This document shows, piece by piece, positions 10,151 through 64,000 of a stretch of 64,000 nucleotides of DNA. The stretch lies in assembly GCA_035463115.1 (NCBI GenBank), contig DATHTO010000020.1, forward strand, positions 9,316 to 73,315, read 5' to 3'. The position numbers were made by a program, and so were the translations under genes. Position 1 is the stretch's first letter. Each line of letters starts with the position of its first letter. Origin of the DNA: Actinomycetota bacterium. Lineage in GTDB: Bacteria > Actinomycetota > UBA4738 > HRBIN12. The notes under the pieces are model-generated. The model was not told the DNA's origin, made no database searches, and saw nothing but the letters and a program-made list of their open reading frames with translations.

Positions 10151-12483
<2,333 letters not shown>

Positions 12484-39093: not shown

Positions 39094-40406
39094 CCTTCCT
39101 CGCCTTCGACCCGCAGGACGCTGGCGACGTCGCGGACGGCCTCGAGCTCGCGGACCTCCTCGATCGTCTTCTGGAACGCGCCCTCCTGCGCTCGGTGAGT
39201 GATGAACACGAGCGTGGCTTCCTCGCCGGCGCCCTCCTGCCACACGCGTTCGATCGACACGCCGTTGCGGCCGAACCGCTCGGCGATCTCGGCGAGCACG
39301 CCGGGACGATCCTCGACGTGCAGGTTCAGGTAGTACTGCCCGCGGGTGTCGCCCATGGGCCTGATGCGTCGGTCGCGCGCGTCGGTGGACGCGATCGACC
39401 GGCCGCCGTGCACGAGGTGTCGCGCCACGGCGATCACGTCACCGGCGACCGCCGTTGCGGTCGCGTCGCCGCCGGCGCCGCGCCCGTAGAACATCAGCTG
39501 TCCGATCCGCGGCCCTTCGACGAAGACGGCGTTGAACGCGTCGCGGACCGACGCGAGCGGATGCGCGGTGGGGATCATCGCGGGGTGAACGCGGACCGAG
39601 ATCGCGTCGTCCTGGAGCTCCGCGATCGCGAGCAGCTTCACGACGTATCCCAACCGATCGGCATCGGCGATGTCCTGGGCCGTCAGGCGCGTGATGCCCT
39701 CGCGGTAGACATCGTCGATCGTCACGCTCGTGTCGAACGCGAGCGACGCGAGGATCGCGCACTTCGCCGCCGCGTCGACCCCGTCGACGTCGGCCGTGGG
39801 GTCGGCCTCGGCGTAGCCGAGCCGCTGGGCTTCCGCCAGCGCTCCGTCGAACGACCATCCGTGCTCGGACATCTGCGTGAGGATGAAGTTGGTCGTCCCG
39901 TTCACGATCCCGAGGAGCCGCTCCACCCGCTCGCCCGCGAGCGACGAGCGCAGCGGTCGGATCAGCGGGATGCCGCCAGCCACCGCGGCTTCGAACGCGA
40001 GATCGAGCCCCGCGGCGTCGGCGGCGGCGAAGAGCTCCGCGCCGTGCGTCGCGAGGAGCTCCTTGTTCCCGGTCACGACCGGTTTGCCGTTGGCCAACGC
40101 CTGGAGGATGAGCGACCGGGCCGGCACGGTTCCGCCGATCAGCTCGACGACGACATCGGTGCCGGGGTCGTCGACGACGAGGCGGCCATCCTCGACGAAG
40201 GCCTCGGCCGGCAGCGGCACGTCGCGCACCTTCGCGCGATCGCGCACCGCGACCCGGTGCACCTCGATCCGGACGCCGGCGCGGCGTGCGATGTCGTCGG
40301 CGTTCGCTCCGAGCAGACGGATCAGCGCCGCACCGACGTTGCCGGCGCCCAGCACGCCGACACGCACCACGCGGTCGCCGGCCGCGCGTTCGCCGATCCG
40401 CGTCAT
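39090..40406 (-). CDS. hom: homoserine dehydrogenase (with C-terminal ACT domain)
   Basis: NAD motif [10 protein letters not shown], catalytic region, and ACT domain. ATGA overlap with the lysA stop. Confidence 0.9.
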
Positions 40407-42256
40407 CGTCGGTCCCCCACCCAGCGCGCCATCAGGATCTCGTCCTCGTAACCGTAGGTCTTCCGAGACTGCCCTGACAGCCGCCCCTCCTCGACGAACC
40501 CGAAGCGGCGGTACATCGCGATCGCGCGTCGGTTCGAGGGGTAGACCGACAGGACGAGCTTGCCGACGTCGGCGGCCCGTGCCCACCGCACCGCTTCGGC
40601 CAGCAGGGCGGTGCCCACGCCGCCGCCGCGACGGTCTTCGGCGACCACGACCGCGAGCGTCGCGACGTGACGCGTCGCGGGATGCCGCTCCCGCGTGAGA
40701 CCGAGATGACCGATCACGCGACCGTCGGCCACGGCGACGAGCTCGACCCCGTCGTCGCCGACGGCACGTGCGAACCGCCGGCGCCACGTCCGCACGGGCT
40801 GCGTCACGTCGTCGCTGCGCACCCAGCGCCCCTCCGCGATCACGGCACGCCACAGGTCGAGCGCGGCGGCGGCATCGCGCGGCGATGCGCGCCTCACCGA
40901 GACGCCGAGCGGCGCGATCGCCTCGTCGGCGTCGCTCCGAGCGGCGGCCACCTCGAGACGGTCGAGATCGGCGGCGTCTTCGCGCCGGAGCCACCGCTCG
41001 ACGTCGCCGCCGCGGACCGCGACCACCGCCGGCCTGCCCACCCGGTTGTAGCCGGAAGCGAGCGAATAGCCGTACGCGCCAGTCGCGGCGAACGCGACGA
41101 CGTCACCGGGCGCGAGGTCCGACGGGACGGCCACGCGTTCGGCGAGGACGTCGCCCGACTCGCAGTGACGACCGACGATCGCGACGTCGATCGTCGGCGA
41201 GGCGTGCGTCCGCACGGGCGTGACCGAGTACGCCGCGTCGTAGAGCATCGGACGGAGGTTGTCCGACATCCCGCCGTCGACCGCGACGAGCGTCCGTCCG
41301 CCGACGCGCTTCGTGCCGACGACGGTGTACAGCGTGACCGCGGCGTTCGCGACGAGCGATCGACCGGGCTCGACCATCAGCGTCGGCACCGCGATCGCGG
41401 CGTCGTGCGCGAGCGCGTCCAGGCGATCGGCGAGCGTGGGTGCGAGCGCGACCGGGTCCACCGGACGCTCGTCGACGTACGTGACCCCGAAGCCGCCACC
41501 GACGTCGACGATCTCGGTCTCGCTCCCGATCGCGGCGCGGACGTCTCCGGCGAGGCCGACGACCGCGTCGAGGACGCGGACGTACGGGTCGACGTCGAGG
41601 ACCTGCGACCCCGCGTGCGCGTGGAGCCCCGCGTAGCGGACGTGTCGCAGGTTCGCGGCCTCCCGGAGCACATCGGTCACCGACGCGCGCGGCGTGCCGA
41701 ACTTCGACACCTCGTGACCCGTGGCGATCGCCTCGTGCGTGTCGACGAGGACCTCGGGGATCACGCGGAGCAGGAACCGCTGCGCCACCCTGCTGCCCGC
41801 CGCGATCGCGTCGAGCCGACGGAGCTCGTCGATGCCGTCGACGATCATGAGCCCGAGGCCTGCCTCGACGGCGAGGGCCAGCTCGGCATCGGTCTTCGCG
41901 TTCCCGTGCAGCAAGACCCGGGAGCCACGCGCGCCGGCGCGCATGCACGCCTCGACCTCACCGCCGCTCGCGCACAGCAGGTCCAGCCCCGCGTCGAGCG
42001 CGAGCCGGATCACGGCATGCGCGGTGAACGCCTTCACGGCGTACGCCGCGCGGTCGTACGCGCGGGCGACGGAGCGCATCCGCTCGGCGATCTCGTCGGC
42101 GTCGACCACGATCGTCGGCGTGCCGTGGTTGGCGGCGAGGTCGGCGGCGGAGATCCCCCCGATCGCGAGCCCGTCGTCGCCCCAGGCGGCGTTCCGGGGC
42201 CAGGGCGACGGGGCCGACGATGCGTCCGACGGCGGTTCCGGCGCGGGCTCAGCCAT
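40403..42256 (-). CDS. lysA: diaminopimelate decarboxylase fused to a C-terminal GNAT acetyltransferase domain
   Basis: The N-terminal ~440 aa are LysA (PLP fold, CESGD, GAYGYS). The C-terminal ~170 aa are GNAT (RGGGVGTALL motif A, YRRFGF). One uninterrupted 617-aa frame. Confidence 0.85.
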   Translation of the reverse strand: MAEPAPEPPSDASSAPSPWPRNAAWGDDGLAIGGISAADLAANHGTPTIVVDADEIAERMRSVARAYDRAAYAVKAFTAHAVIRLALDAGLDLLCASGGEVEACMRAGARGSRVLLHGNAKTDAELALAVEAGLGLMIVDGIDELRRLDAIAAGSRVAQRFLLRVIPEVLVDTHEAIATGHEVSKFGTPRASVTDVLREAANLRHVRYAGLHAHAGSQVLDVDPYVRVLDAVVGLAGDVRAAIGSETEIVDVGGGFGVTYVDERPVDPVALAPTLADRLDALAHDAAIAVPTLMVEPGRSLVANAAVTLYTVVGTKRVGGRTLVAVDGGMSDNLRPMLYDAAYSVTPVRTHASPTIDVAIVGRHCESGDVLAERVAVPSDLAPGDVVAFAATGAYGYSLASGYNRVGRPAVVAVRGGDVERWLRREDAADLDRLEVAAARSDADEAIAPLGVSVRRASPRDAAAALDLWRAVIAEGRWVRSDDVTQPVRTWRRRFARAVGDDGVELVAVADGRVIGHLGLTRERHPATRHVATLAVVVAEDRRGGGVGTALLAEAVRWARAADVGKLVLSVYPSNRRAIAMYRRFGFVEEGRLSGQSRKTYGYEDEILMARWVGDRR

Positions 42257-43913
42257 CGGAACGGTCCATCCGTTCCGGCGCCGACACGCCGAGGAGACCG
42301 AGGAGGTTCGCGAGCACCTGCTTCGTCGCGCGGCAGAGCCAGAGCCGTGCCTGCGTCAGTTCCGCGTCGTCGCCGACGACGCGGCAGTCCGTGTAGAAGC
42401 GATGGAACCGCGCCGCGAGGTCCTGCGACGCGTGCGCGAGGCGATGCGGCGCGCGCAGGTCCGCGGCGGTCGCGATCACGCCCGGCACGTCGGCGAGCGC
42501 CCGCAGGAGATCGGCCTCGGCCTCGTGCACCAGGAGGCCGAGGTCCACCTGCTCGATCGGGCGCGGTTCCACGCCGGCGTCGGCAGCCTTCCGGAGGATC
42601 GACGCGATCCTCGCGTGCCCGTACTGCACGTAATAGACCGGGTTGTCCATGGACTCGCGCGCGACGGCCTCGATGTCGAAGTTGATCGTCGCGTCGGGGC
42701 TGAACATCAGCAGGTGGAACCTGGCCGCGTCGGTCCCGACCTCGTCGAGCAGCTCGTCGAGCGAGACGAACGTGCCCGCGCGCTTGCTCATCGCGACCGG
42801 CTCGCCGCCGCGCAGGAACGCCACGAACTGGTACAGCACGATCTCGACCGCCTCGGCGTCGTACCCGAGCGCGTCAGCGGCGCCGCGGACCCGCACGACG
42901 TCACCGTGGTGATCGGCACCCCAGACGTACACGAGGTGGTCGAAGCCTCGCGAGAACTTGTCGACGAGGTACGCACAGTCCGCGCCGAAGTACGTGTGCG
43001 CGCCGTTCGAACGGACGACCACGCGGTCCTTGTCGTCGCCGAAGTCGGTCGACCGGAACCAGACCGCTCCCTCCGCGTCGTACGCGTGCCCGCTGTCGCG
43101 CAACCGCTGGACCGCCGCGTCGATCTCGCCCTTCTCCGCGAGCGACGCCTCCGAGACGTAGGTGTCGAACCGCACGCCGAAGCGCGCGAGCGTCGCCTCG
43201 ATCCAGGCGAGCACGCGACGGACGCCTTCGGCGCGCAGGCGCGCGAGGCGCTCGGCGGGCTCGAGATCGGCCAGGGACGGACCGTTCGCCTCCAGCACGT
43301 CGCGCGCGATGTCGGTGACGTACGCGCCGCGGTAGCCGTCGTCGGGCCACGCCGCCTCGCGGCCGAGGAGCTCCAGGTACGCCGCTTCGACCGACGCGCC
43401 GAACCGATCCATCTGGCCGCCCGCGTCGTTGAAGTAGTACTCGCGCTCGACGGTCCACCCCGCCGCCTCGAGCAGGCGCCCGATCGCGTCGCCGAGGGCC
43501 GCGTTGCGCGCGTGACCGACGTGCAGGGGCCCGGTCGGGTTGGCGCTCACGAACTCGACCTGGGCACGCCGGCCGGACGGCGCGACGGTTCCGTACGCGT
43601 CGCCTTCGGCGGCGATCCGCCGGACCACGTCGTGGAGCCAGTCGTCGGTCACGAACAGGTTGATGAACCCCGGCCCCGCGACCTCGACCTTCTCGATGAA
43701 CGGCGCCGGAGGCATCGCGTCGACGACGTCCTGGGCGACCTCGCGCGGGGACCGTCGGAGCCGCCCGGCGACCGCGAGGGCCACGTTCGTCGCGAAATCG
43801 CCGTGCTCCTTCTGCTTCGGGGCGAGCAGCTCGGGGGTCGGAACCTCGCCCGCGTCGCCCACGACCGTTCGCAGCCCGGCGGCGATGACCTCGCGGAGCT
43901 GGTCCTCGATCAC
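42249..43913 (-). CDS. argS: arginyl-tRNA synthetase
   Basis: HIGH motif (PTGPLHVGHARNAALGD) and the MSKRAG variant of KMSKS. The GTG at 43913 overlaps the TGA of the upstream response regulator. Confidence 0.9.
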   Translation of the reverse strand: MIEDQLREVIAAGLRTVVGDAGEVPTPELLAPKQKEHGDFATNVALAVAGRLRRSPREVAQDVVDAMPPAPFIEKVEVAGPGFINLFVTDDWLHDVVRRIAAEGDAYGTVAPSGRRAQVEFVSANPTGPLHVGHARNAALGDAIGRLLEAAGWTVEREYYFNDAGGQMDRFGASVEAAYLELLGREAAWPDDGYRGAYVTDIARDVLEANGPSLADLEPAERLARLRAEGVRRVLAWIEATLARFGVRFDTYVSEASLAEKGEIDAAVQRLRDSGHAYDAEGAVWFRSTDFGDDKDRVVVRSNGAHTYFGADCAYLVDKFSRGFDHLVYVWGADHHGDVVRVRGAADALGYDAEAVEIVLYQFVAFLRGGEPVAMSKRAGTFVSLDELLDEVGTDAARFHLLMFSPDATINFDIEAVARESMDNPVYYVQYGHARIASILRKAADAGVEPRPIEQVDLGLLVHEAEADLLRALADVPGVIATAADLRAPHRLAHASQDLAARFHRFYTDCRVVGDDAELTQARLWLCRATKQVLANLLGLLGVSAPERMDRSDG

Positions 43914-44401: not shown

Positions 44402-44476
<75 letters not shown>

Positions 44477-45140: not shown

Positions 45141-45227
45141 CGCCCACGGAAGGTCCCGCAGGCGGCCCCCACCGGGCGGGTCGTTCGACCCCACGCTCGG
45201 GCCGGCCCGTCCGTCAGCATCGCTTCG

Positions 45228-48200
45228 ATGCAGACGGAGGTACCTGGGGTACGTGCCGCGGTCCGCCCATGGGCGGTCGTCGACGGCAACGAGGCCGCCG
45301 CGACGATCGCGCACCGGCTCTCGGAGGTGATCGCGATCTATCCGATCACCCCGAGCTCGCCGATGGGCGAGCTCGCCGACGCGTGGTCCGCGGCCGGCCG
45401 CCCGAACCTCTGGGGTGCCGTCCCGCGCGTCGTCGAGATGCAGAGCGAAGGCGGCGCCGCGGGCACCCTCCATGGCGCGCTCCAAGGTGGCGCGCTCGCG
45501 ACGACCTTCACCGCGTCGCAGGGTCTCCTGCTGATGCTGCCGAACATGTTCAAGATCGCGGGCGAGCTCACCCCGTTCGTGATGCACGTCGCGGCGCGCA
45601 CGATCGCCACCCATGCGCTGTCGATCTTCGGCGACCACAGCGACGTGATGGCGGCCCGCACGACGGGGTTCGCGATGCTCGCGAGCGCGTCGGTCCAGGA
45701 GGCGCACGACCTGGCGCTCGTGGCGCACGCCGCGACGTTGGAAGCGCGCGTCCCGTTCCTGCACTTCTTCGATGGATTCCGAACGTCGCACGAGGTCGGC
45801 AAGATCCGCCCGCTCGATGACGACGACCTCCTGGCGCTCGTCGACGACCGCGCGGTCCGCGCGCACCGCGACCGGGCGCTCTCCCCCGAACGGCCGAAGC
45901 TCCGCGGCTCGGCGCAGAACCCCGATGTGTTCTTCCAGGCGCGCGAGGCGTGCAGCCCGTTCTACGCCGCCGTCCCCGACATCGTGCAGGCGACGATGGA
46001 TCGCCTGGCGGATCGGACCGATCGCCGGTACCACCTCTTCGACTACGTCGGCCACCCCGAGGCCGAGCGCGTGCTCGTCCTGATGGGATCGGGCGTCGGT
46101 GCGGCGACCGAAGCCGTCGAGGCCCTGGTCGCCGGCGGCGAGCGGGTCGGGCTCGTCCAGGTGCGGCTGTACCGGCCGTTCTCCGCCGAGGCGTTCGTCG
46201 CGTCGCTGCCGACGTCGACGCGCGCGATCGCCGTCCTCGACCGCACGAAGGAACCGGGCGCGCCGGGCGAGCCGCTGTACCAGGACGTCCAGACGGCGCT
46301 CGCCGAGGAGCTCCAAGCCGGACGCGCCCGGTTCGAGCTCGGCTCGCCGTTCGTGATCGGCGCCCGGTACGGGCTCTCGTCGAAGGAGTTCACGCCGGCG
46401 ATGGCGAGATCGCTCCTGGATCACCTCGCGACGGCCGAGCCGCGGAACCACGTCACCGTCGGGATCGTGGACGACGTGAGCGGGTCGAGCCTCGACGTCG
46501 ATCGCTCGTTCTCCACGGAACCCGACGACGTCGTCCGTGCCGTCTTCTTCGGCCTCGGTGCCGACGGCACCGTCAGCGCGAACAAGAACTCGATCAAGAT
46601 CATCGGCGAGCGCACGGATCTGCACGCCCAGGGCTACTTCGTCTACGACTCGAAGAAGGCCGGTTCGGTGACGGTGTCGCACCTGCGGTTCGGCCCACGC
46701 CCGATCTCGTCGGCGTACCTGATCGATCGCGCGAACCTCGTCGCGGTGCACGAGTTCGAGCGCCTCGACCGGATCGACGTGCTCGCGATCGCGGAACCGG
46801 GCGCGACGCTGCTGCTGAACAGTCCCTACGGCGACGACACGTGGACGCACCTGCCCGTCGAGGTGCAGCAGCGGATCATCGACCTCGGCCTTCGGGTGTT
46901 CGTCGTCGACGCGTACGCGGTGGCGAAGACGGCGGGCCTCGGGAGCCGCGTGAACACGGTGCTGCAGACGTGCTTCTTCCGACTGACCGACATCCTGCCG
47001 TTCGACGAGGCCGTCCACGCGATCAAGGACGCGATCGTGAAGAGCTACGGCAAACGTGGCGAGTCGGTGCTCGCGCGGAACTTCGCCGCCGTCGACGCCG
47101 CCGTCGCTGCGCTGCACGAGATGCGTGTTCCGGAGCGCGCGACCGCGACGCGGACCCGCCCGCCGGCGGTCGATGCGGAGGCGCCTGGCTTCGTGCAGCG
47201 GGTGACGGCGCGGATCCTCGCCGGCGAAGGCGACCTGCTGCCCGTGAGCGCCCTTCCGGTCGACGGAACGTTCCCGACCGACACCGCTCGGTGGGAGAAA
47301 CGCTCGATCGCGCACGAGATCCCGATCTGGGATCCCGAGATCTGCATCGACTGCGCGAAGTGCGCGCTCGTGTGCCCGCACGCGGCGATCCGGATGAAGG
47401 TCTACGAGCCCGGCGAGGTCGAGGGTGCGCCGGAGACCTTCGCGCACAAGGAGTGGAAGGACCGGGAGCATCCTGGACGGTGGATGACGATCCAGGTCGC
47501 GCCCGACGACTGCACCGGATGTGGCATCTGTGTCGACGTGTGCCCCGCCCGGAGCAAGGAAGCGGTCAAGCACAAGGCGATCGACATGGCGCCGAAGCGC
47601 GACCACCTCGAGCGCGAGCGCGCGAACCTCGGGTTCTTCCTCGACATCCCGGATCCGGCACGCGCCGACGTGCGCGCCGACACGGTGAAGGGATCGCAGC
47701 AGCTCCGGCCGATGTTCGAGTACAGCGGCGCGTGCAGCGGTTGCGGCGAGACGCCCTACCTGAAGATCTTGACCCAGCTCGTCGGCGATCGGATGGTCGT
47801 CGCGAACGCCACGGGGTGTTCGTCGATCTACGGGGGGAACCTCCCGACGACGCCGTGGTCCGTCGGCGACGACGGGCGCGGCCCCGCGTGGGCGAACTCC
47901 CTGTTCGAGGACAACGCCGAGTTCGGCCTCGGCATCCGCCTCGCCGCTGACGCCCGTCGCGACCTCGCCGTCGAGCTCCTCGAGCGGCTCGCCGACGAGC
48001 TCGATCCCGACGTCGTCGCCGCGACGCTCGCCGCCGTCGACGCCCGCGACGACGCCACGATCGGCGCGCAACGCGAACGGATCGAGTCGCTCCGCAGGCG
48101 GCTGTTCGCCGTGAGCGATCCTCGCGCACGGAACCTCGAAGCCGTCCTCGACGCGTTGCTCCCGACGAGCGTCTGGATCGTCGGCGGCGACGGATGGGCC

Positions 48201-48848
48201 TACGACATCGGGTTCGGGGGGCTCGATCACGTCCTCGCCACCGGCCGGAACGTCAACGTCCTCGTCCTCGACACCGAGGTCTACTCGAACACGGGCGGTC
48301 AGGCGTCGAAGGCGACGCCGCGTGGCGCGGTCGCGAAGTTCGCCGCGGCCGGCAAGGAACAGGGCAAGAAGGACCTGGGTCAGATCGCGACCGCGTACGG
48401 CGACGTGTACGTCGGGCAGATCGCCCTGGGCGCCGACATGCCACACGCGGTCAAGACGATCGCCGAGGCCGAGGCGCACGACGGGCCGTCGCTCGTGATC
48501 GCGTACAGCACCTGCATCGCCCACGGGATCGACATGTCGACCTCGATGACGCACCAGAAGGAGGCCGTCGACAGCGGCTACTGGCCGCTGTGGCGGTACG
48601 ATCCGGCGCTCTCCCGAGCGGGCCAGCCTCCCTTCCGCCTCGACTCGAAGCGGCCGAAGCTGCCGCTGAAGGATTTCGCGCTGCAGGAGGCTCGGTTCGC
48701 GATGCTCGAGCGGACCGATCCCGATCGCGCGCACGAGCTGCTCGATCGCGCCCAGGCCGACGTCGACGCGCGGTGGCATCTGTACGAGCAGCTCGCCGGG
48801 ATCGAGCGGGCGGCCGACCACCCCGACGTGGAGGAGCGCTCGACGTGA
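45228..48848 (+). CDS. pyruvate:ferredoxin (flavodoxin) oxidoreductase, single-polypeptide homodimeric type
   Basis: 1206 aa. SEVIAIYPITPSS. Two 4Fe-4S CxxCxxCxxxCP motifs (CIDCAKCALVCP, CTGCGICVDVCP). TPP domain GDGWAYDIG. Confidence 0.9.
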   Translation: MQTEVPGVRAAVRPWAVVDGNEAAATIAHRLSEVIAIYPITPSSPMGELADAWSAAGRPNLWGAVPRVVEMQSEGGAAGTLHGALQGGALATTFTASQGLLLMLPNMFKIAGELTPFVMHVAARTIATHALSIFGDHSDVMAARTTGFAMLASASVQEAHDLALVAHAATLEARVPFLHFFDGFRTSHEVGKIRPLDDDDLLALVDDRAVRAHRDRALSPERPKLRGSAQNPDVFFQAREACSPFYAAVPDIVQATMDRLADRTDRRYHLFDYVGHPEAERVLVLMGSGVGAATEAVEALVAGGERVGLVQVRLYRPFSAEAFVASLPTSTRAIAVLDRTKEPGAPGEPLYQDVQTALAEELQAGRARFELGSPFVIGARYGLSSKEFTPAMARSLLDHLATAEPRNHVTVGIVDDVSGSSLDVDRSFSTEPDDVVRAVFFGLGADGTVSANKNSIKIIGERTDLHAQGYFVYDSKKAGSVTVSHLRFGPRPISSAYLIDRANLVAVHEFERLDRIDVLAIAEPGATLLLNSPYGDDTWTHLPVEVQQRIIDLGLRVFVVDAYAVAKTAGLGSRVNTVLQTCFFRLTDILPFDEAVHAIKDAIVKSYGKRGESVLARNFAAVDAAVAALHEMRVPERATATRTRPPAVDAEAPGFVQRVTARILAGEGDLLPVSALPVDGTFPTDTARWEKRSIAHEIPIWDPEICIDCAKCALVCPHAAIRMKVYEPGEVEGAPETFAHKEWKDREHPGRWMTIQVAPDDCTGCGICVDVCPARSKEAVKHKAIDMAPKRDHLERERANLGFFLDIPDPARADVRADTVKGSQQLRPMFEYSGACSGCGETPYLKILTQLVGDRMVVANATGCSSIYGGNLPTTPWSVGDDGRGPAWANSLFEDNAEFGLGIRLAADARRDLAVELLERLADELDPDVVAATLAAVDARDDATIGAQRERIESLRRRLFAVSDPRARNLEAVLDALLPTSVWIVGGDGWAYDIGFGGLDHVLATGRNVNVLVLDTEVYSNTGGQASKATPRGAVAKFAAAGKEQGKKDLGQIATAYGDVYVGQIALGADMPHAVKTIAEAEAHDGPSLVIAYSTCIAHGIDMSTSMTHQKEAVDSGYWPLWRYDPALSRAGQPPFRLDSKRPKLPLKDFALQEARFAMLERTDPDRAHELLDRAQADVDARWHLYEQLAGIERAADHPDVEERST

Positions 48849-51256: not shown

Positions 51257-51292
51257 GGCACCCGCTCGGCGGAAACGCGCGACGCTGCTAGG

Positions 51293-51826
51293 TTGCCCGA
51301 CATGAGCGATCCCGAACAGACCGCAGGCCCCGCGCAGCCGCCCGTGGTTCCGGCGGTTCCGGTCGGAGGCGAGACGGCCGGCGGCGGTGACGGCGCCGGC
51401 GCCGGCCCGCAGCAGGAGTCGGTCGCCGAGCCCGCGAAGCTGCTGCGGATCGCGTCGATGGTCCGCGAGCTCCTCGAGGAGACGCGCCAGGCGCCGATGG
51501 ACGAATCGGGGCGCAAGCGCCTCGCGAGCGTCTACAGCCGGTCGCTCGGCGAGCTCGGCGAGGCGATCAGCCCGGATCTCCGGGAGGAGCTGGAGCAGCT
51601 CGCGCCGCCGATGGAGGGCGTGCCGTCGGAATCCGAGCTCCGGATCGCGCAGGCGCAGCTCGTCGGCTGGCTCGAGGGCCTCTTCCACGGGATCCAGGCT
51701 GCGATGTTCGCGCAGCAGGCGGCCGCGCGCGCCCAGTTCGAGGAGCTCCGCCGTCGCGGGTTGATGGCGCAGAACCCGCAGCCGGGCGAGGGCCAGCCGC
51801 CACAGCGCGGCGGCCAGTACCTCTAG
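51293..51826 (+). CDS. bpa: bacterial proteasome activator Bpa/PafE-like
   Basis: ~170 aa helical protein ending in the GQYL motif that docks onto the 20S proteasome in mycobacteria. Confidence 0.6.
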   Translation: MPDMSDPEQTAGPAQPPVVPAVPVGGETAGGGDGAGAGPQQESVAEPAKLLRIASMVRELLEETRQAPMDESGRKRLASVYSRSLGELGEAISPDLREELEQLAPPMEGVPSESELRIAQAQLVGWLEGLFHGIQAAMFAQQAAARAQFEELRRRGLMAQNPQPGEGQPPQRGGQYL

Positions 51827-57801: not shown

Positions 57802-58758
57802 TCATCCGGGCGCGCCGACGCCCTCGGCGAGATCCAGCCGGTCCTCGAGCCGGCGCTGCCGTTCGTCGTCGTGCCGCTTCCACCCCACCGCGACGGCGAG
57901 CATCGCCGGCACCAGCAGGAACGACGATGCGAGCCACATCAGGACCGCGGCGTCGCGCTGGGACGACAACGCCGCGGGACCCCAGGGCGGCGCCGCCGCG
58001 GCGTACGTCGGGTACAGCGGGTCGTTCGCCACGAAGATGGCGAGCGAGAGGAACGACATCGCCGGCATCGCGAGGAACACGGTGAGCAACCGGACGGGGT
58101 GACGCCACGGATGCGGCATCGGGTCCGTGCCGACGACCGGCCACCACAGCAGCAGCGCGGCGCCGATCCAGAGCCCGTGCTCGACGGCGTGCCAGACCTG
58201 CGATCGGAGCGCGATGTCGAACAACGGAGAGAAGTGGATGACCCACGGGATCGCCGCGAAGCCGAGCCACGCCACCGCGGGCGTGGCGAGGACACGGAAC
58301 GGACGCGTCCGCAGCGCCGCCGTCACGTGCCGCGCCGTCCGCGGCGACGCCGCCCGCAACGCGAGGGTGACGGGCGCGCCGAGCGCGAGGAGCGGTGGCG
58401 CCACGAGCGTGAGCAGGACGTGCTGCGCCATGTGCACCGCGAACGAGACGTCGGCGTAGCGGTCGACCGGCGAGACCAGCGCGAGCGCCGTCACGGCGAG
58501 ACCGGCGTACCACCACGCCACCGCGCCCCACGGATGCGGCGTCGCTCTGCGTCGGGACCGGGTCACGGCGGCGGCGTAGGCCGAGCCGACGCCGAGCAGC
58601 ACGACGACGCTGATCGGATCGAAGCTCCAGGCCGCCCACGCCGGCCCCTCCGGCGGCACGGGGATCGCGCCCAGCATGCCGCCATCGTCCCACGACGGAC
58701 CGTGCGCCGGAACGGCGCGGCGCGGACCTGCGGTTGCGCCGGTCCCCGCGTTGACCAT
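57802..58758 (-). CDS. ctaG: caa3-type cytochrome c oxidase assembly factor CtaG-like membrane protein
   Basis: Polytopic protein with VHMAQHVLL (HxxQH) and AVEHGLW motifs. The true start is probably the internal Met near 58677. Confidence 0.55.
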   Translation of the reverse strand: MVNAGTGATAGPRRAVPAHGPSWDDGGMLGAIPVPPEGPAWAAWSFDPISVVVLLGVGSAYAAAVTRSRRRATPHPWGAVAWWYAGLAVTALALVSPVDRYADVSFAVHMAQHVLLTLVAPPLLALGAPVTLALRAASPRTARHVTAALRTRPFRVLATPAVAWLGFAAIPWVIHFSPLFDIALRSQVWHAVEHGLWIGAALLLWWPVVGTDPMPHPWRHPVRLLTVFLAMPAMSFLSLAIFVANDPLYPTYAAAAPPWGPAALSSQRDAAVLMWLASSFLLVPAMLAVAVGWKRHDDERQRRLEDRLDLAEGVGAPG

Positions 58759-58786
58759 CTCGTCGCCGCGCGGGTAGAACGGGTGG

Positions 58787-59362
58787 GTGGCAACGACCCC
58801 GGGGGCGGCGGCAACGGAGCGTCGCGTCTCGCCGCTGCTCTTCGGGACCGTGCTGTTCCTCGCTTCGGAGCTCCTGTTCTTCGGAAGCCTCTTCGCCGCC
58901 TACTTCGCGCTGCGCGCGCAGACCGTCACCTGGCCGCCGGAAGGCGTGCAGCTCGACGTCGTCGTTCCGGCGATCGGGACCGTGCTGCTGGTGCTGTCGA
59001 GCGTCACGTTCCAGGTCGGGCTCGTGGCGGGCGAACGGGGGCGACGTTCGGGGCTACGCGCGTGGATCGCCGCGACGCTCCTCCTCGGCATCGTGTTCCT
59101 CGGCGTGCAGATCTGGGATTACACACGCCTCGACTTCGACGTCTCGAGCCACGCGTACGGAACGATCTTCTACGCGATGACCGGCTTCCACGGGCTGCAC
59201 GTCGCCGCCGGGATCGTCCTGATGCTCGTGATCCTCGGCCGCCTCGCGCAAGGTGCGTACCAGGACGGCCGTGTCGAGAGCGTGCACGCGATCGGGTACT
59301 ACTGGCATTTCGTCGACGTCGTCTGGATCGCGCTGTTCGCGACCTTGTACCTCCTCCGATGA
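58787..59362 (+). CDS. ctaE: cytochrome c oxidase subunit III
   Basis: FYAMTGFHGLHV and YYWHFVDVVW motifs. Confidence 0.85.
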   Translation: MATTPGAAATERRVSPLLFGTVLFLASELLFFGSLFAAYFALRAQTVTWPPEGVQLDVVVPAIGTVLLVLSSVTFQVGLVAGERGRRSGLRAWIAATLLLGIVFLGVQIWDYTRLDFDVSSHAYGTIFYAMTGFHGLHVAAGIVLMLVILGRLAQGAYQDGRVESVHAIGYYWHFVDVVWIALFATLYLLR

Positions 59363-59380
59363 GCGGATGACCAGGGGCCG

Positions 59381-60136
59381 ATGAGCGATCGACAAGCCCG
59401 CCTGTTGACGTGGGTCCTGCGAGCGGGCTTGATCGCGGCGATCGTCGGCCAGGTCGCCTGGTCGTTCCGGCCGAGCGTGGGTCGGGCGCAGACCGACGAG
59501 GAGGCCCTCGGCCGTCGCCTCTACCAGAGCGGGTGCATCACCTGTCACGGCGTCGACGGTCGCGGCACCGAGCTCGGGCCGAGCCTCGAGGACGTCGGAA
59601 CCGCTTCGGTCGACTTCTACCTCTCGACGGGCCGCATGCCGCTGGCGAACCCCGGCGACCAGGCCGACCGTCGCCCGCCGGTCTACACCGACCCACAGAT
59701 CGCGGCCATCGTCGCGTACCTGCGACCCCTCGTGGCCGGGGGCCCCGAGATCCCCGAGGTCGACATCGCCGGGGCCGACCTCTCGCGGGGAGCGCTGATC
59801 TTCCTGGACAACTGCGCGGCATGCCACGGCGCGGGCGCGGGCGGCGACTCGATCGGCGGAGGCCAGATCGCGCCGGCCGTCGGTGGTGCTTCGCCCCAGC
59901 AGATCGTCGAGGCGATCAGGATCGGGCCCGGCCTGATGCCGCGGTGGGGAGAGACGACGATCGAGCCGGCCGACGCCGACGCGGTCGCCGCGTACCTCGT
60001 CTGGCTCCGCGACAACGCCGACGAGGGCGGACTGCAGCTCGGGCGCGTGGGCGCCGTCGCGGAGGGCCTCGTCGCGATGGTCGTCGGGATCGGATTGATC
60101 CTGCTGGTGATCCGGCTCACGAAGGCGCAGCCGTGA
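59381..60136 (+). CDS. qcrC: diheme cytochrome c subunit of the bcc complex
   Basis: Two CxxCH motifs (CITCH, CAACH) plus a C-terminal TM anchor. Confidence 0.8.
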   Translation: MSDRQARLLTWVLRAGLIAAIVGQVAWSFRPSVGRAQTDEEALGRRLYQSGCITCHGVDGRGTELGPSLEDVGTASVDFYLSTGRMPLANPGDQADRRPPVYTDPQIAAIVAYLRPLVAGGPEIPEVDIAGADLSRGALIFLDNCAACHGAGAGGDSIGGGQIAPAVGGASPQQIVEAIRIGPGLMPRWGETTIEPADADAVAAYLVWLRDNADEGGLQLGRVGAVAEGLVAMVVGIGLILLVIRLTKAQP

Positions 60137-60969
60137 ACCGGCCCGAGCGCCCGGTCGCGATCGCGCTCGTCGCCTCGATCGTCGGCGCGCTCGGCCTGTT
60201 CGTCGTCTACGCGATGGGCGGGCAACCGCAGCTCGAAGGCGCGCTCCTGTTCGTGGCGCTCGGGGGGCTCGGTGTCGCCCTGATGCTCTGGGCGCGAGGG
60301 CTGATGCGATCGATCGCCGATGAGACCCAGGGACGCCATGGTCCGGCGTCGCCGAGCGACGTCGAGAGCGCCACCGCGGCGGTGGAGGAAGGCGTCGACG
60401 AGATCCGGCGTCGACGGTTCCTGTCACGGCTGCTGCTCGCGGCGGCGGGCGCGCTGGGCCTCGCCGCCCTGTTCCCGGTGCGGTCGCTCGGCGGCTCGCC
60501 CGGCGACGAGCTGGCGACGACCGCGTGGAGGTCCGGGTCGCGACTGACGACGATCGACGGCAACCCCGTGAGCGTCGAGGACCTCGAGCTGGAGTCGTTC
60601 GTCACCGTCTTCCCCGAGGACGCGATCGGATCGTCCGACGCCCAGGCGGTCCTCATCCGCGTGGATCCCCAGCTGCTCGAGCTGAACGACGAACAGCTCG
60701 CGGCGACCGTCGACGGCTACCTCGCGTACTCGAAGCTGTGCACGCACGCCGGATGCCCACTCGGCCTCTACCTCGCAGCGACGCACGAGCTGCGGTGTCC
60801 GTGCCACCAGTCGACCTTCGACGTCCTCGACGGCGGGGTGCCCGTGTACGGACCGGCGGCCCGGCCGCTCCCGCAGCTGCCGATCGAGGTCGGGGACGAC
60901 GGCTTCCTGCGCGCCACCGGCGACTTCACGGACCCGGTCGGCCCGAGCTTCTGGAACATGCCGTCGTGA
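60133..60969 (+). CDS. qcrA: Rieske iron-sulfur protein of the bcc complex
   Basis: CTHAGCP and CPCHQS boxes. Its GTG overlaps the qcrC TGA. Confidence 0.85.
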   Translation: MNRPERPVAIALVASIVGALGLFVVYAMGGQPQLEGALLFVALGGLGVALMLWARGLMRSIADETQGRHGPASPSDVESATAAVEEGVDEIRRRRFLSRLLLAAAGALGLAALFPVRSLGGSPGDELATTAWRSGSRLTTIDGNPVSVEDLELESFVTVFPEDAIGSSDAQAVLIRVDPQLLELNDEQLAATVDGYLAYSKLCTHAGCPLGLYLAATHELRCPCHQSTFDVLDGGVPVYGPAARPLPQLPIEVGDDGFLRATGDFTDPVGPSFWNMPS

Positions 60970-62363
60970 TCGTCCGTCGGGTGGTCACGGGCGTGGACGA
61001 GCGGCTCGACACGACGTCGTTCATCCGACGCAACCTGCGGAAGGTCTTCCCGGACCACTGGTCGTTCATGCTCGGAGAGGTGGCGCTGTACGCGTTCGTG
61101 CTCCTCGTCCTCACCGGCATCTTCTTGACGTTCTTCTTCGTCGCGTCGCCGGAGCCGGTCGTCTACGACGGACCGTACGAGGCCCTCCGTGGGGTGGAGG
61201 TGTCGGCGGCGTACGACTCGGTGATGCGCATCTCGTTCGAGGTCCAGGCCGGGCTCGTGATGCGTCAGACCCACCACTGGGCCGCCCTCGTCTTCATGGG
61301 CGCGACGATCGTGCACATGTTCCGCGTGTTCTTCACGGGGGCGTTCCGGCGCCCGAGGGAGCTGTCATGGATGCTCGGCGTCCTGCTGTTCTTCACGGGC
61401 ATCGGCGCGGGCTTCACGGGCTACTCGCTGCCCGACGACCTGCTGTCGGGGACGGGGCTGCGGATCATCTACTCCGCCGTCGTCGGGGTCCCGTTCGTCG
61501 GGCCGTGGGCGGCGTTCCTGTTCTTCGGCGGCGAGTTCCCGGCTCCGGATCTGCTGTCGCGGATCTACATCCTGCACGTCCTGCTGATCCCACTTGCGAT
61601 CCTGGGGCTGCTCGGCGGCCACCTCACGCTCGTCTGGCTCCAGACCCATACGCAGTTCCGGGCCCCCGGCCGGACGGAGGACACGGTCACGGGTACGCCC
61701 GTGTGGCCGAAGTTCGCGGTGAAAGCGACCGGGCTCGCCTTCGTCACCTGGGCGGTGTGCGCCCTGCTCGGCGGCGTGGCGCAGATCAACCCCGTGTGGC
61801 TCTACGGACCGTTCGTCCCGTACTCGGCACCCTCGCCCGCCCAACCCGACTACTACGTGGGCTGGCTCGAGGGTCTGCTGCGGATCTGGCCCGCCTGGGA
61901 GTTCACGATCTTCGGCGTCACGATCGCGTCGACGTTCATCCCCGGAGCCGTCGTCCCGGGGATCGTGACGGGGGTGTTGCTGCTCTGGCCGTTCATCGAG
62001 GCGTGGGCCACGGGTGATCGCGCATGGCACCACTTCGCCCAGCGACCGAGGGAGGCGCCCGTCCGCACGGGCATCGGCGCCGGAGGCATCACCTTCTTCA
62101 CGATCTTGATGCTGGCCGGTTCGAACGACGTCTTGGCGTACTTCCTGCACATCGAGGTCGACGGCTTCAATCAGCTCCTGCGTTGGAGCCTGCCGATCGC
62201 ACCCGTCGTCGTCGGTCTCGTCACGTACCGGATCGTTCGCGATCTCCACGAACGGGACCCGCAGCCGATCCGCCGTCCGCAGCGCTCGCGCGTCCGCCGG
62301 ACCGCGACCGGCGGCTACGAGGCTGAGCACGAGGAGATGCCCACCTCGCGGAGGGCACCGTGA
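60966..62363 (+). CDS. qcrB: cytochrome b of the bcc complex
   Basis: Heme-ligand histidines (QTHHWAAL, ILHVLLIP). Its GTG overlaps the qcrA TGA. Confidence 0.9.
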   Translation: MIVRRVVTGVDERLDTTSFIRRNLRKVFPDHWSFMLGEVALYAFVLLVLTGIFLTFFFVASPEPVVYDGPYEALRGVEVSAAYDSVMRISFEVQAGLVMRQTHHWAALVFMGATIVHMFRVFFTGAFRRPRELSWMLGVLLFFTGIGAGFTGYSLPDDLLSGTGLRIIYSAVVGVPFVGPWAAFLFFGGEFPAPDLLSRIYILHVLLIPLAILGLLGGHLTLVWLQTHTQFRAPGRTEDTVTGTPVWPKFAVKATGLAFVTWAVCALLGGVAQINPVWLYGPFVPYSAPSPAQPDYYVGWLEGLLRIWPAWEFTIFGVTIASTFIPGAVVPGIVTGVLLLWPFIEAWATGDRAWHHFAQRPREAPVRTGIGAGGITFFTILMLAGSNDVLAYFLHIEVDGFNQLLRWSLPIAPVVVGLVTYRIVRDLHERDPQPIRRPQRSRVRRTATGGYEAEHEEMPTSRRAP

Positions 62364-63109
62364 GGCGCTGGCTGCTCGCGGTGGCGCCGGCGATGCTGGC
62401 GCTCGCGTCGTGTTCGGACGGCACGACGTTCGGGTTCCCCGACGCGGCGACCGAACAGGGCCGACGGATCGTCGACGTCTGGGGCGTGTTCATGATCGCG
62501 GCGATCGTCGTCGCGGGGATCGTGTACGCGGGCATCCTCTGGTCGCTGCTCCGCTACCGTCGCCGCCGGACCGATCCGGAGGGCTACGGGCATCAGTTCC
62601 ACGCGAACGTGCCGATCGAGATCGCGTACACCGCGGTGCCGATCCTCATCATCATCGGCTTGTTCCTGATCTCCTACGACGCCGATCGCGACATCCGCGA
62701 GCTGCATCCGGATCCCGACGTGGTGCTCGAGGCGACCGCGTTCTCGTGGGGATGGCGCTTCGAGTATCCCGAGCTCGGCGTCGTGGTGGTCAGTCCGCCC
62801 GCGACGCGTGCCGAACCGGGTCCCGAGATCGTGCTCCCGCTCGATCGCATCACGCGGGTGCGTCTCACGTCGGCCGACGTGATCCACGCCTTCTGGGTGC
62901 CGTCGTTCAACTTCAAGATGGACGCGATCCCCGGACGGACGAACGAGTTCGAGCTCACGCCGGTCGAGGAGGGGACGTACCGGGGGGTCTGCGCCGAGTT
63001 CTGCGGGATCCAGCATGCGTACATGACGTTCCGGGTCACGAGCGCGTCGCCGGCGGAGTTCGACGGGTGGATCGCCGAACAGCGGGCGGTCGGAGCAACG
63101 ACGGGATGA
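62360..63109 (+). CDS. ctaC: cytochrome c oxidase subunit II (lipoprotein)
   Basis: CuA centre HAFWVP...CAEFCGIQHAYM. Lipobox LALASCSDG. Its GTG overlaps the qcrB TGA. Confidence 0.85.
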   Translation: MRRWLLAVAPAMLALASCSDGTTFGFPDAATEQGRRIVDVWGVFMIAAIVVAGIVYAGILWSLLRYRRRRTDPEGYGHQFHANVPIEIAYTAVPILIIIGLFLISYDADRDIRELHPDPDVVLEATAFSWGWRFEYPELGVVVVSPPATRAEPGPEIVLPLDRITRVRLTSADVIHAFWVPSFNFKMDAIPGRTNEFELTPVEEGTYRGVCAEFCGIQHAYMTFRVTSASPAEFDGWIAEQRAVGATTG

Positions 63110-64000
63110 GCGTGTTCACCGGCGTGCGATCGACGGGGCCCGTGTCCTGGCTGACGACGACCGACCACAAGCGGATCGGGATCATGTACTGCGTCACGGC
63201 CTTCGCGTTCTTCCTGATCGGCGGGGCGCTCGCCGGCCTGATCCGCACCGAGCTCGCGCGGCCGGATCTGCAGTTCATGGAGCCCAACACGTACAACGGC
63301 GTGTTCACGCTGCACGGGACGATCATGATCTTCCTGTTCGTGGCCCCGTTCGGCGCAGGGCTGATGAACTACCTCGTGCCGCTGCAGATCGGAGCGCCCG
63401 ACATGGCGTTCCCCCGGCTCAACGCGACCTCGTACTGGTTCTTCGCGTTCGGCGGCGTGCTCGTGCTCTTCTCGGGCTTCGCGTCCCAGGGCGGCGGGGC
63501 GTCGATGGGGTGGTACGCCTATCCCCCGCTGTCGGGCCCCAGGTGGTCGCCCGGGATCGGGGTCGACCTGTGGATCTTCGGCGTCGGGTTCGCGGCCATC
63601 TCGACGATGCTCACGGGCATCAACGTCTTGACGACGGCCTTCCTGATGCGCGCGCCGGGGATGACGATGTGGCGGCTGCCGATCTTCACCTGGAACGCGA
63701 TCGTCACCTCGCTGCTCGGCGTGGTGGCGTTCCCGCCGCTGCTCGTGGCGGCCTCGCTCCTGTTGTTCGAACGACGGCTCGACGGGCTCGTGTTCGATCC
63801 GCTGGGCGGAGGCGACCCCGTCATCTACCAGCACCTGTTCTGGTTCCTCGGCCATCCCGAGGTCTACATCATGGCGCTGCCCTTCTTCGGTGTCGTCACC
63901 GAGATCATCCCCGTGTTCAGCAGGAAGCCCCTGTTCGGCTACGTCGGCTTCGTGCTCGCGACGATGACGATCGGCGCGTACTCCGTGGGCGTCTGGGCGC
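63106..64000 (+). CDS. ctaD: cytochrome c oxidase subunit I (3'-truncated by window end)
   Basis: Hand translation from the ATG at 63106 gives MSVFTGVRSTGPVSWLTTTDHKRIGIMY...TLHGTIMIFLFV...YQHLFWFLGHPEVYI. ATGA overlap with ctaC. Confidence 0.9.
   Translation, partial: MSVFTGVRSTGPVSWLTTTDHKRIGIMYCVTAFAFFLIGGALAGLIRTELARPDLQFMEPNTYNGVFTLHGTIMIFLFVAPFGAGLMNYLVPLQIGAPDMAFPRLNATSYWFFAFGGVLVLFSGFASQGGGASMGWYAYPPLSGPRWSPGIGVDLWIFGVGFAAISTMLTGINVLTTAFLMRAPGMTMWRLPIFTWNAIVTSLLGVVAFPPLLVAASLLLFERRLDGLVFDPLGGGDPVIYQHLFWFLGHPEVYIMALPFFGVVTEIIPVFSRKPLFGYVGFVLATMTIGAYSVGVWA

Follow-up and report, generated by a model that had tools for sequence, protein, structure and literature searches.

The 64-kb stretch of DNA analysed here (the window; 64,000 nucleotides from an Actinomycetota bacterium) ends in a cluster of respiratory genes, raising the question of whether an actinobacterium could make every catalytic subunit of a cytochrome bcc-aa3 supercomplex from one mRNA. 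An earlier reading of this DNA, made from its sequence alone, had proposed that it does so from a contiguous and translationally coupled locus. By Rfam, the window carries one tRNA only and no rRNA.

Gene content and junctions of the locus

Positions 57802-64000 hold a divergent ctaG-like gene followed by ctaE, qcrC, qcrA, qcrB, ctaC and a partial ctaD, all on one strand (Table 1). The ORF list and the sequence place every gene at the coordinates given by the sequence-only reading, and the contiguous ctaE-qcrC-qcrA-qcrB-ctaC-ctaD series that it described is borne out by ORFs, Pfam and NCBIfam. For each of the seven window proteins tested, an actinobacteria-specific NCBIfam model is the top match, with three scores falling under the curated cut-off: CtaE, a short actinobacterial form (181.6 bits against 190 for NF050119, aa3_CtaE_Actin), QcrA (242 against 275) and CtaC (220 against 250).

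Table 1. Features of the respiratory locus at the end of the window, with the matches that identify them
Feature	Position	Strand	Basis and remarks
ctaG-like (Caa3_CtaG family)	57802..58677	-	PF09678, 224.9 bits, E = 1.2e-66; longest ORF to 58758
promoter-like element TTGACC-18 nt-TAGAAC	58751..58780	+	ends 6 nt before ctaE GTG
ctaE, aa3 oxidase subunit III, 191 aa	58787..59362	+	PF00510, E = 1e-31
qcrC, membrane-anchored di-haem cytochrome cc, 251 aa	59381..60136	+	NF050122; two CxxCH
qcrA, Rieske iron-sulfur subunit, 278 aa	60133..60969	+	PF00355 and PF19297 (QcrA_N); NF050121
qcrB, cytochrome b, 465 aa	60966..62363	+	NF050120
ctaC, aa3 oxidase subunit II, 249 aa	62360..63109	+	PF00116 and PF02790 (COX2 and COX2_TM); NF050117
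ctaD, aa3 oxidase subunit I, first 298 codons	63106..64000, window end	+	PF00115 (COX1), E = 5e-86; NF050116

The junctions, read directly from the sequence, confirm that ctaC and ctaD follow qcrB through GTGA and ATGA overlaps. Stop and start codons share a 4-nt GTGA at qcrC/qcrA, qcrA/qcrB and qcrB/ctaC, and a 4-nt ATGA at ctaC/ctaD, while ctaE and qcrC are separated by an 18-nt gap instead of an overlap. The ctaC GTG is preceded, at a distance of 4 nt, by GGAGGG, which resembles a Shine-Dalgarno sequence.

The remainder of the unit was recovered from a public contig (L001) that matches the window with 99.85 % identity across the 2001 bases compared and extends past the window end. Here, ctaD is full-length at 538 aa, and its stop codon forms a GTGA overlap with a 127-aa ctaF (PF12270; L001 positions 10741-11124), downstream of which lies a convergent methyltransferase gene. 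Because L001 holds the complete ctaD and the overlapping ctaF before the convergent gene, the unit comprises seven genes, ctaE-qcrCAB-ctaCDF, with 4-nt overlaps at five of its six junctions. A 127-aa PF12270 product stands right after ctaD in L082 and L084 as well as in L001, and the CtaF sequence matches the M. tuberculosis CtaF chain weakly (8HCR_H, E = 0.006). The sequence-only reading was thus right that no ctaF lies between ctaC and ctaD, and following the DNA downstream, as it had advised, yields both ctaF and the rest of ctaD.

Together, these features make it probable that the locus is a functional respiratory operon, ctaE-qcrC-qcrA-qcrB-ctaC-ctaD-ctaF, whose last gene falls just past the window. 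Its predicted products are the three catalytic subunits of a bcc menaquinol:cytochrome c reductase and the four core subunits of an aa3 cytochrome oxidase, and the overlapping stop and start codons suggest one mRNA and translational coupling.

Subunit features and the III-IV interface

The bcc subunits carry the expected cofactor motifs. QcrC has two haem motifs (CITCH at residue 52, CAACH at 145) and a C-terminal membrane anchor (hydrophobic segment 226-244); it scores 208.7 bits against NF050122 (cut-off 200), and in the PDB it is closest to the QcrC chains of 7Q21, 6HWH, 6ADQ and 7E1V. Both Rieske boxes are present in QcrA (CTHAGC at 203, CPCH at 222), along with an RRRFL twin-arginine motif at 93 and three N-terminal hydrophobic segments, and supercomplex QcrA chains are again its top PDB matches. 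QcrB contains a Qo-type PDYY at 294 and HHW at 103, reaches 590 bits against the actinobacterial-type model NF050120 (cut-off 500), and matches the QcrB chains of 7Q21, 6ADQ and 7E1V best (E about 1e-133).

On the oxidase side, CtaC bears a lipoprotein signal (lipobox LASC at 15), DVIHAF at 173 and the CuA motif CAEFCGIQHAYM at 211, and it exceeds the cut-off of TIGR02866 CoxB (173.9 bits, cut-off 147.7). Its domains are COX2 and COX2_TM only, with no fused cytochrome c domain. Full-length CtaD from L001 contains GHPEVY, WAHHMY and HFHY and aligns with M. smegmatis CtaD at E = 2.5e-191. Every subunit searched finds its top PDB match in a chain from one of the solved III2IV2 supercomplexes of actinobacteria. 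The CIII2CIV2 complexes of Mycobacterium smegmatis, M. tuberculosis and Corynebacterium glutamicum (6ADQ, 6HWH, 7E1V, 7Q21) are built from the same seven core subunits, and they also have in common with the present set a di-haem anchored QcrC, a QcrA with three helices, a lipoprotein CtaC that is CuA-only, and the gene order ctaE-qcrCAB.

The subunits differ from those of the model species in size, with QcrA at 278 aa (versus 408-429), QcrB at 465 (versus 539-549) and CtaC at 249 (versus 341-363). Part of the difference in CtaC is an insertion in the cupredoxin domain, found in the Mycobacterium, Corynebacterium and Streptomyces proteins and absent here, where the alignment passes over M. smegmatis CtaC residues 150-209; the corresponding segment is 25 aa here and 59-61 aa in Streptomyces, whose CtaC has an insertion of ~35 aa that the window protein lacks. 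This segment is also short in nearly all Acidimicrobiia loci, so the insertion characterises class Actinomycetes and not the phylum as a whole. In the model complexes, a C-terminal QcrB extension of ~100 aa docks on the aa3 oxidase, with Glu453 in C. glutamicum (PMC8795186). Here, the tail past the last helix is ~45 aa, about half the model-species length; it aligns with M. tuberculosis residues 440-468 (G-x-Y-x-E-x-H and several Glu) and then stops, so that the III-IV interface may differ. At this interface, His529 of C. glutamicum CtaD pairs with QcrB (PMC8795186), and the PPEHNF histidine of the present CtaD (His513, position from the alignment) aligns with it and with the conserved histidine of the mycobacterial protein.

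These differences bear on whether bcc and aa3 could instead act as separate complexes, forming no obligate supercomplex of the mycobacterial type, with co-localisation of the genes serving only their co-regulation. The absent CtaC insertion, the truncated QcrB extension and the subunits that score under the actinobacterial cut-offs would fit such an arrangement. We nevertheless consider it quite improbable: QcrC belongs to the di-haem, membrane-anchored kind that stands in for a soluble cytochrome c, no cytochrome c domain is attached to CtaC, the interface histidine is kept in CtaD, and CtaF, the actinobacterial subunit IV, is present. Formation of a supercomplex in this lineage, like the role of CtaG, is what we infer.

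A further possibility, raised by the sequence-only reading itself, is that the locus is a paralogue that has degenerated or fallen silent, with the oxidase genes actually expressed located elsewhere. The view of the genome is 64 kb, so other oxidase copies or a soluble cytochrome c may exist beyond it; a tblastn search found no second copy of any subunit within the window. Against degeneration, all ORFs are intact, the cofactor motifs are complete with no frameshifts or lost ligands, and each of the eight genes gives a dN/dS under 1 against two relatives, with values of 0.24-0.48 in the catalytic subunits. Every relative examined, moreover, keeps the operon together with its flanks. We set the idea aside on the strength of the intact motifs, the conservation and the dN/dS values, leaving it only the slightest probability.

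Gene order in relatives and model species

How unusual the layout appears depends on the species with which it is compared. The bcc-aa3 genes of C. glutamicum are divided among three units, ctaD, ctaCF and ctaE-qcrCAB (PMC7337898), and the contrast that had been drawn with Corynebacterium, where ctaC/ctaF and ctaD lie away from ctaE-qcrCAB, is correct for this species, the present locus having all seven genes in one string with overlaps at most junctions. The M. tuberculosis gene order is absent from PMC7924339. In both genera ctaE precedes qcrC-qcrA-qcrB as it does here, where the unit continues past qcrB. In M. tuberculosis, ctaC/ctaF (Rv2200c/Rv2199c) presumably sit close to ctaE-qcrCAB (Rv2193-2196), just a few genes away, with ctaD alone truly distant.

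In Streptomyces, all bcc and aa3 core genes occupy one locus, described in S. coelicolor as qcrCAB-ctaE-SCO2152-SCO2153-ctaCDF (SCO2148-SCO2156; PMC7931247), and in the sampled loci (L066, L071, L073 and L076-L078) they share a single strand. The order there is ctaC-ctaD-ctaF, then ~2.1 kb with two other genes, then ctaE-qcrCAB, and the genes do not form an uninterrupted overlapping string. The gene order of the window recurs in clusters from Acidimicrobiia metagenome-assembled genomes (MAGs), including Ilumatobacteraceae (L064, L065), Acidimicrobiaceae (L079) and others, whose QcrB proteins are 47-52 % identical to that of the window. Overlaps of 4 nt are likewise available at qcrB/ctaC and ctaC/ctaD in L043, L057, L064 and L065. 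Three of these clusters (L057, L064, L065) have ctaG beyond ctaD/ctaF and in the same orientation as the other genes, unlike the divergent upstream ctaG of the window. The literature searched describes only the co-localised Streptomyces locus and the split units of C. glutamicum and M. tuberculosis; no published description of a ctaE-qcrCAB-ctaCDF operon or of the Acidimicrobiia clusters was found in it.

We surveyed the 81 loci whose QcrB genes are closest to that of the window. In 65 of them, no more than 10 kb separates ctaC/ctaD from qcrB, and the exact colinear order ctaE-qcrCAB-ctaCD occurs in 15, spread over about five separate QcrB clades that include Ilumatobacteraceae (the neighbour-joining QcrB tree is rough and serves only to show this scatter). 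Other arrangements are also found, with the two gene blocks convergent in 30 loci and the aa3 block first in 16. Three relatives with 66-75 % QcrB identity (L082, L083, L084) share the same operon, divergent ctaG and flanking genes, and L002-L005 have the gene order of the window; the assemblies of L005 and L083 contain evident frameshifts (a split ctaD, a fused ctaE-qcrC), and their junction details were left out. The comparison of locus architecture that had been called for thus shows, among these loci, a recurrent layout, and the suggestion that it is unusual holds only against Mycobacterium and Corynebacterium. Judged on its sequence, the locus is a real, functional and ordinary respiratory operon, with a layout common in relatives outside the model species.

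Expression of the unit and its meaning

The divergent gene upstream encodes a protein with about six hydrophobic segments, whose match to PF09678 far exceeds the gathering score of 27.7. It does not reach the Bacillus-type equivalog TIGR02737 (62.7 versus 279), so its product belongs to the family without being strictly orthologous to Bacillus CtaG. Its start is most likely at 58677, giving 291 aa, since this start is called in L001 and the products in L082-L084 are 287-290 aa. The ctaG-ctaE spacer is then 109 bp; the 28 bp that follow from the longest ORF were dropped for the 291-aa start. The earlier placement of a CtaG-like factor divergently and upstream stands, with a longer spacer, and the divergent ctaG/ctaE pair recurs in many surveyed loci.

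The promoter-like element upstream of ctaE has a single match in the 64-kb window and none in 100 shuffles, for a pattern picked post hoc. The orthologous position has an identical element in L001, L082 and L083 and a TAAAAC version in L084. Three or four lineages thus conserve TTGACC-18-TAnAAC at a distance of 6-7 nt upstream of the ctaE start. This spacing suggests that the ctaE transcript is leaderless. When the locus and the DNA following ctaF were scanned with consensus patterns for sigma-70 promoters and intrinsic terminators, nothing rose over shuffled expectation; such scans are uninformative for an actinobacterium of 70 % GC and leave room for internal promoters, and the generic scan missed the ctaE element because its -10 hexamer ends in C.

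The contiguous genes might be expressed as two or more units, for instance ctaE-qcrCAB and ctaCDF, if qcrB contained a promoter or a site at which the mRNA is processed, with the overlaps reflecting compaction of a high-GC genome and not obligatory coupling. The same two blocks are separable elsewhere, as the convergent and aa3-first loci illustrate, and four of the colinear loci have no qcrB/ctaC overlap, with gaps of 79-231 nt in L062, L068 and L079. Three promoters serve these genes in C. glutamicum (PMC7337898), and the strong Shine-Dalgarno-like motif before ctaC would permit independent initiation. Weighing against separate units, there is no non-coding space between qcrB and ctaC in the window, the 4-nt overlap is available in 11 of the 15 colinear loci and kept throughout the window's own clade, and the scans, uninformative as they are, returned no promoter-like or convincing terminator-like site inside the operon. 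On balance, we regard division into separate units as unlikely.

For the single seven-gene operon, we propose that transcription would start at a promoter directly upstream of ctaE, probably giving a leaderless mRNA, and would continue to ctaF, where the convergent gene follows. With stop and start codons overlapping by 4 nt at all but one of the six junctions, ribosomes ending one gene could re-initiate on the next, which would suit subunits present once per protomer of a III2IV2 supercomplex. Menaquinol would give up its electrons to QcrB, from which they would reach the di-haem QcrC by way of QcrA and then move directly to the CuA of CtaC and on to the haem a/a3-CuB centre of CtaD, with no soluble cytochrome c involved. 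The divergent CtaG-family protein may aid metallation or assembly of the oxidase.

The locus presents no new enzyme, mechanism or pathway, and automatic annotation in public MAGs already names the genes correctly. Outside the species, no QcrB exceeds 75 % identity to that of this lineage. Tentatively, and with more doubt than confidence, we suggest that this deep uncultured clade may keep a minimal and possibly ancestral supercomplex, with compact subunits (CtaC without the insertion, a short QcrB tail, a 278-aa QcrA) and one leaderless, coupled mRNA for all seven, the split in Mycobacterium and Corynebacterium being derived. Were this so, the operon would offer, as a single cassette, a natural template for expressing a minimal III2IV2 complex in another host and for studying its structure. 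More broadly, the split genes of the model actinobacteria do not typify the phylum, in which the bcc and aa3 genes are normally linked and occur in several fully colinear permutations, and the compact seven-gene cassette is a possible template for heterologous expression and a way to ask how equimolar synthesis helps assembly.

The ctaE-qcrCAB-ctaCDF gene string

The sequence-only reading had placed the bcc and aa3 genes in one contiguous string beside a divergent ctaG, and the list of ORFs, together with the sequence itself read directly, confirmed this string at the coordinates then proposed, with gene assignments that Pfam and NCBIfam show to be correct. GTGA overlaps were read at the qcrC/qcrA, qcrA/qcrB and qcrB/ctaC junctions and an ATGA overlap at ctaC/ctaD, bearing out the claimed joining of qcrB, ctaC and ctaD, while an 18-nt gap separates ctaE from qcrC. 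For six of the seven window proteins, the top NCBIfam match was an actinobacteria-specific model (NF050116-NF050122), with scores above curated cut-offs for QcrB and QcrC, somewhat below them for CtaE, QcrA and CtaC, and with CtaD compared as a partial protein shortened by the window end; the sole match of the ctaG-like protein was TIGR02737, scoring far under its cut-off. No second copy of any subunit was found within the 64-kb window.

Features of the window and of the relative L083 (ctaG-like to ctaD as listed among the ORFs and read from the sequence)
Feature	Position	Strand	Domains or remarks
PLP decarboxylase ORF region	40403-42355	-	650 aa; Orn/Arg/DAP type, fused C-terminal GNAT acetyltransferase domain
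tRNA-Arg(CCG)	44402-44476	+	sole Rfam match in window
Pyruvate:ferredoxin/flavodoxin oxidoreductase	45141-48848	+	1235 aa, single polypeptide; POR_N, POR, EKR, 4Fe-4S, TPP
Bpa (bacterial proteasome activator)	51257-51826	+	PF10759
ctaG-like (longest ORF)	57802-58758	-	318 aa; Caa3_CtaG; 28-bp spacer to ctaE
ctaG-like, alternative start	58677	-	291 aa; 109-bp spacer to ctaE
Promoter-like element	58751-58780	+	TTGACC-18 nt-TAGAAC
ctaE	58787-59362	+	COX3
qcrC	59381-60136	+	two cytochrome c domains
qcrA	60133-60969	+	Rieske, QcrA_N
qcrB	60966-62363	+	cytochrome b
ctaC	62360-63109	+	COX2, COX2_TM
ctaD (cut at window end)	63106-64000	+	COX1
L083 ctaE-qcrC single ORF	L083 4819-6156		445 aa
L083 ctaD in three pieces	L083 9149-11026		

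The missing end is supplied by L001, a 15.5-kb ENA contig that encodes exactly the window's QcrB protein and is 99.85 % identical to the window (2001 bases compared). Here, full-length ctaD encodes 538 aa and is directly followed by ctaF (127 aa; PF12270, Cyt_c_ox_IV), whose GTG overlaps the ctaD stop, with a convergent methyltransferase gene starting 2 nt past ctaF. Both ctaF and the remainder of ctaD, which the sequence-only reading proposed to look for downstream of the window, are present in L001, and ctaF was rightly said not to lie between ctaC and ctaD; in Streptomyces it likewise follows ctaD. With ctaD complete and ctaF adjoining it, the operon-like unit therefore comprises seven genes, ctaE-qcrCAB-ctaCDF, and because ctaF follows ctaD the locus is more complete than the sequence-only reading could show.

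Elsewhere in the window, the pyruvate:ferredoxin/flavodoxin oxidoreductase gene shares the stretch with the aerobic aa3 oxidase operon, and the Bpa gene is consistent with a proteasome-bearing actinobacterium.

The ctaG-ctaE spacer

Alignment of the ctaG-ctaE spacers of the window and its relatives revealed the promoter-like element, a pattern defined post hoc, unique in the window and missed by a generic promoter scan. It is kept at the orthologous position in L001 and in the relatives L082 and L083, with TAAAAC in the relative L084. The element ends 6 nt upstream of the ctaE GTG, a spacing that suggests a leaderless ctaE transcript; such transcripts are common in Actinobacteria. The most likely ctaG start is 58677, which agrees with the starts called in four related contigs and makes the element intergenic.

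Linkage of qcr and cta genes across relatives

In C. glutamicum, the supercomplex genes form three units, ctaD, ctaCF and ctaE-qcrCAB (PMC7337898), and M. tuberculosis studies handle ctaE-qcrCAB, ctaC and ctaD as separate loci (PMC6823465). With a QcrB alignment as query, we scanned the species-representative genomes of GTDB, kept the best 80 loci and added L001, assigning gene order by tblastn and CtaF by jackhmmer. Either or both of ctaC and ctaD lie within 10 kb of qcrB in 65 of these 81 loci: 15 are colinear as in the window (ctaE-qcrCAB-ctaCD(F)), 30 have qcrCAB followed by convergent ctaF-ctaD-ctaC, 16, six Streptomyces loci among them, carry the aa3 genes upstream on the same strand, three have ctaC-ctaD-ctaE-ctaG inserted between qcrA and qcrB, and one is divergent. 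The remaining 16 yielded no classified ctaC/ctaD match within the available flank, although one so tallied, L027, is itself fully colinear (ctaE-qcrAB-ctaG-qcrC-ctaCDF); L030 is the only one that lacks an aa3 match although its flanks reach 5 kb or more downstream of qcrB and 8 kb or more upstream, the others having shorter flanks. The proposed setting apart from model actinobacteria holds only against Mycobacterium and Corynebacterium; these genes are widely linked, and the layout is one of several permutations that are common among them. Our literature search found no paper on an uninterrupted ctaE-qcrCAB-ctaCDF order, and the Streptomyces qcr-cta locus is the closest published analogue.

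A rough QcrB tree scatters the colinear loci over about five distinct clades, with MAGs of Ilumatobacteraceae and Acidimicrobiaceae among them, and a 4-nt qcrB/ctaC overlap is possible in 11 of these 15 loci. The layout is universal in the window's own clade, in L002-L005 and likewise in three further relatives, L082, L083 and L084 (66-75 % QcrB identity). These three also keep the divergent ctaG and the flanking genes, with an ABC transporter, pyrD and a phosphoribosyltransferase to one side and a methyltransferase and DUF309 to the other. In L083, ctaE and qcrC were called as a single fused ORF; because ctaD is broken in the same long-read contig, assembly frameshifts are likelier than a true fusion.

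Three Acidimicrobiia MAGs (L016, L017, L051) are interleaved even more than the window, with oxidase genes between qcrA and qcrB in a one-strand order qcrC-qcrA-ctaC-ctaD-ctaE-ctaG-qcrB. Actinobacterial-type clusters (49-53 % QcrB identity) also occur in MAGs labelled 'Vulcanimicrobiota' (L027, L070), 'Bacillota' (L012), 'Chloroflexia' (L024) and 'Limnocylindrales' (L034), which reflects mis-binning, mislabelling or horizontal transfer.

Subunits and the supercomplex

Every cofactor motif checked in the window and L001 proteins is present: two CxxCH motifs and a C-terminal anchor in QcrC; CTHAGC, CPCH, a twin-arginine motif and three N-terminal hydrophobic segments in QcrA; a PDYY Qo-type motif in QcrB; the CuA site CAEFCGIQHAYM and a lipobox in CtaC; and GHPEVY, WAHHMY and HFHY in CtaD. 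For all six subunits searched against solved structures (all but CtaE), the top match was a III2IV2 chain of C. glutamicum, M. smegmatis or M. tuberculosis. By our reading of the alignment, the CtaD PPEHNF histidine corresponds to C. glutamicum His529, the partner of QcrB where complexes III and IV meet (PMC8795186). Compared with two relatives, each of the eight genes has a dN/dS below 1, and values for the catalytic genes are 0.24-0.48.

The window CtaC (249 aa) lacks the insertion at residues 150-209 of M. smegmatis CtaC, its cupredoxin-domain segment (residues 136-160) being 25 aa versus about 60 aa (59-61 aa) in Streptomyces. Across the aligned loci, the window clade and Acidimicrobiia have only 14-27 aa in this segment, and some Micrococcales and Nocardioides-like loci have an insertion of 32-41 aa. 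Since nearly all Acidimicrobiia-type loci have the short form, it would be a phylum-wide basal state and not peculiar to the window, and the insertion appears to be a trait derived in class Actinomycetes. In addition, QcrB continues for about 45 aa past its last helix, in contrast to an oxidase-docking extension of about 100 aa in C. glutamicum (PMC8795186), and QcrA has 278 aa versus 408-429 aa in model species. These differences allow to some extent for another kind of III-IV interface and do not argue against direct QcrC to CtaC transfer.

We infer a single transcript, translational coupling and supercomplex formation at this locus. All subunits would be made from one polycistronic mRNA, on which ribosomes would terminate and reinitiate at the five junctions that overlap. 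In the C. glutamicum supercomplex, each protomer contains the catalytic subunits QcrABC and CtaCDEF in single copy (PMC8795186), and such a transcript would suit equal subunit amounts.
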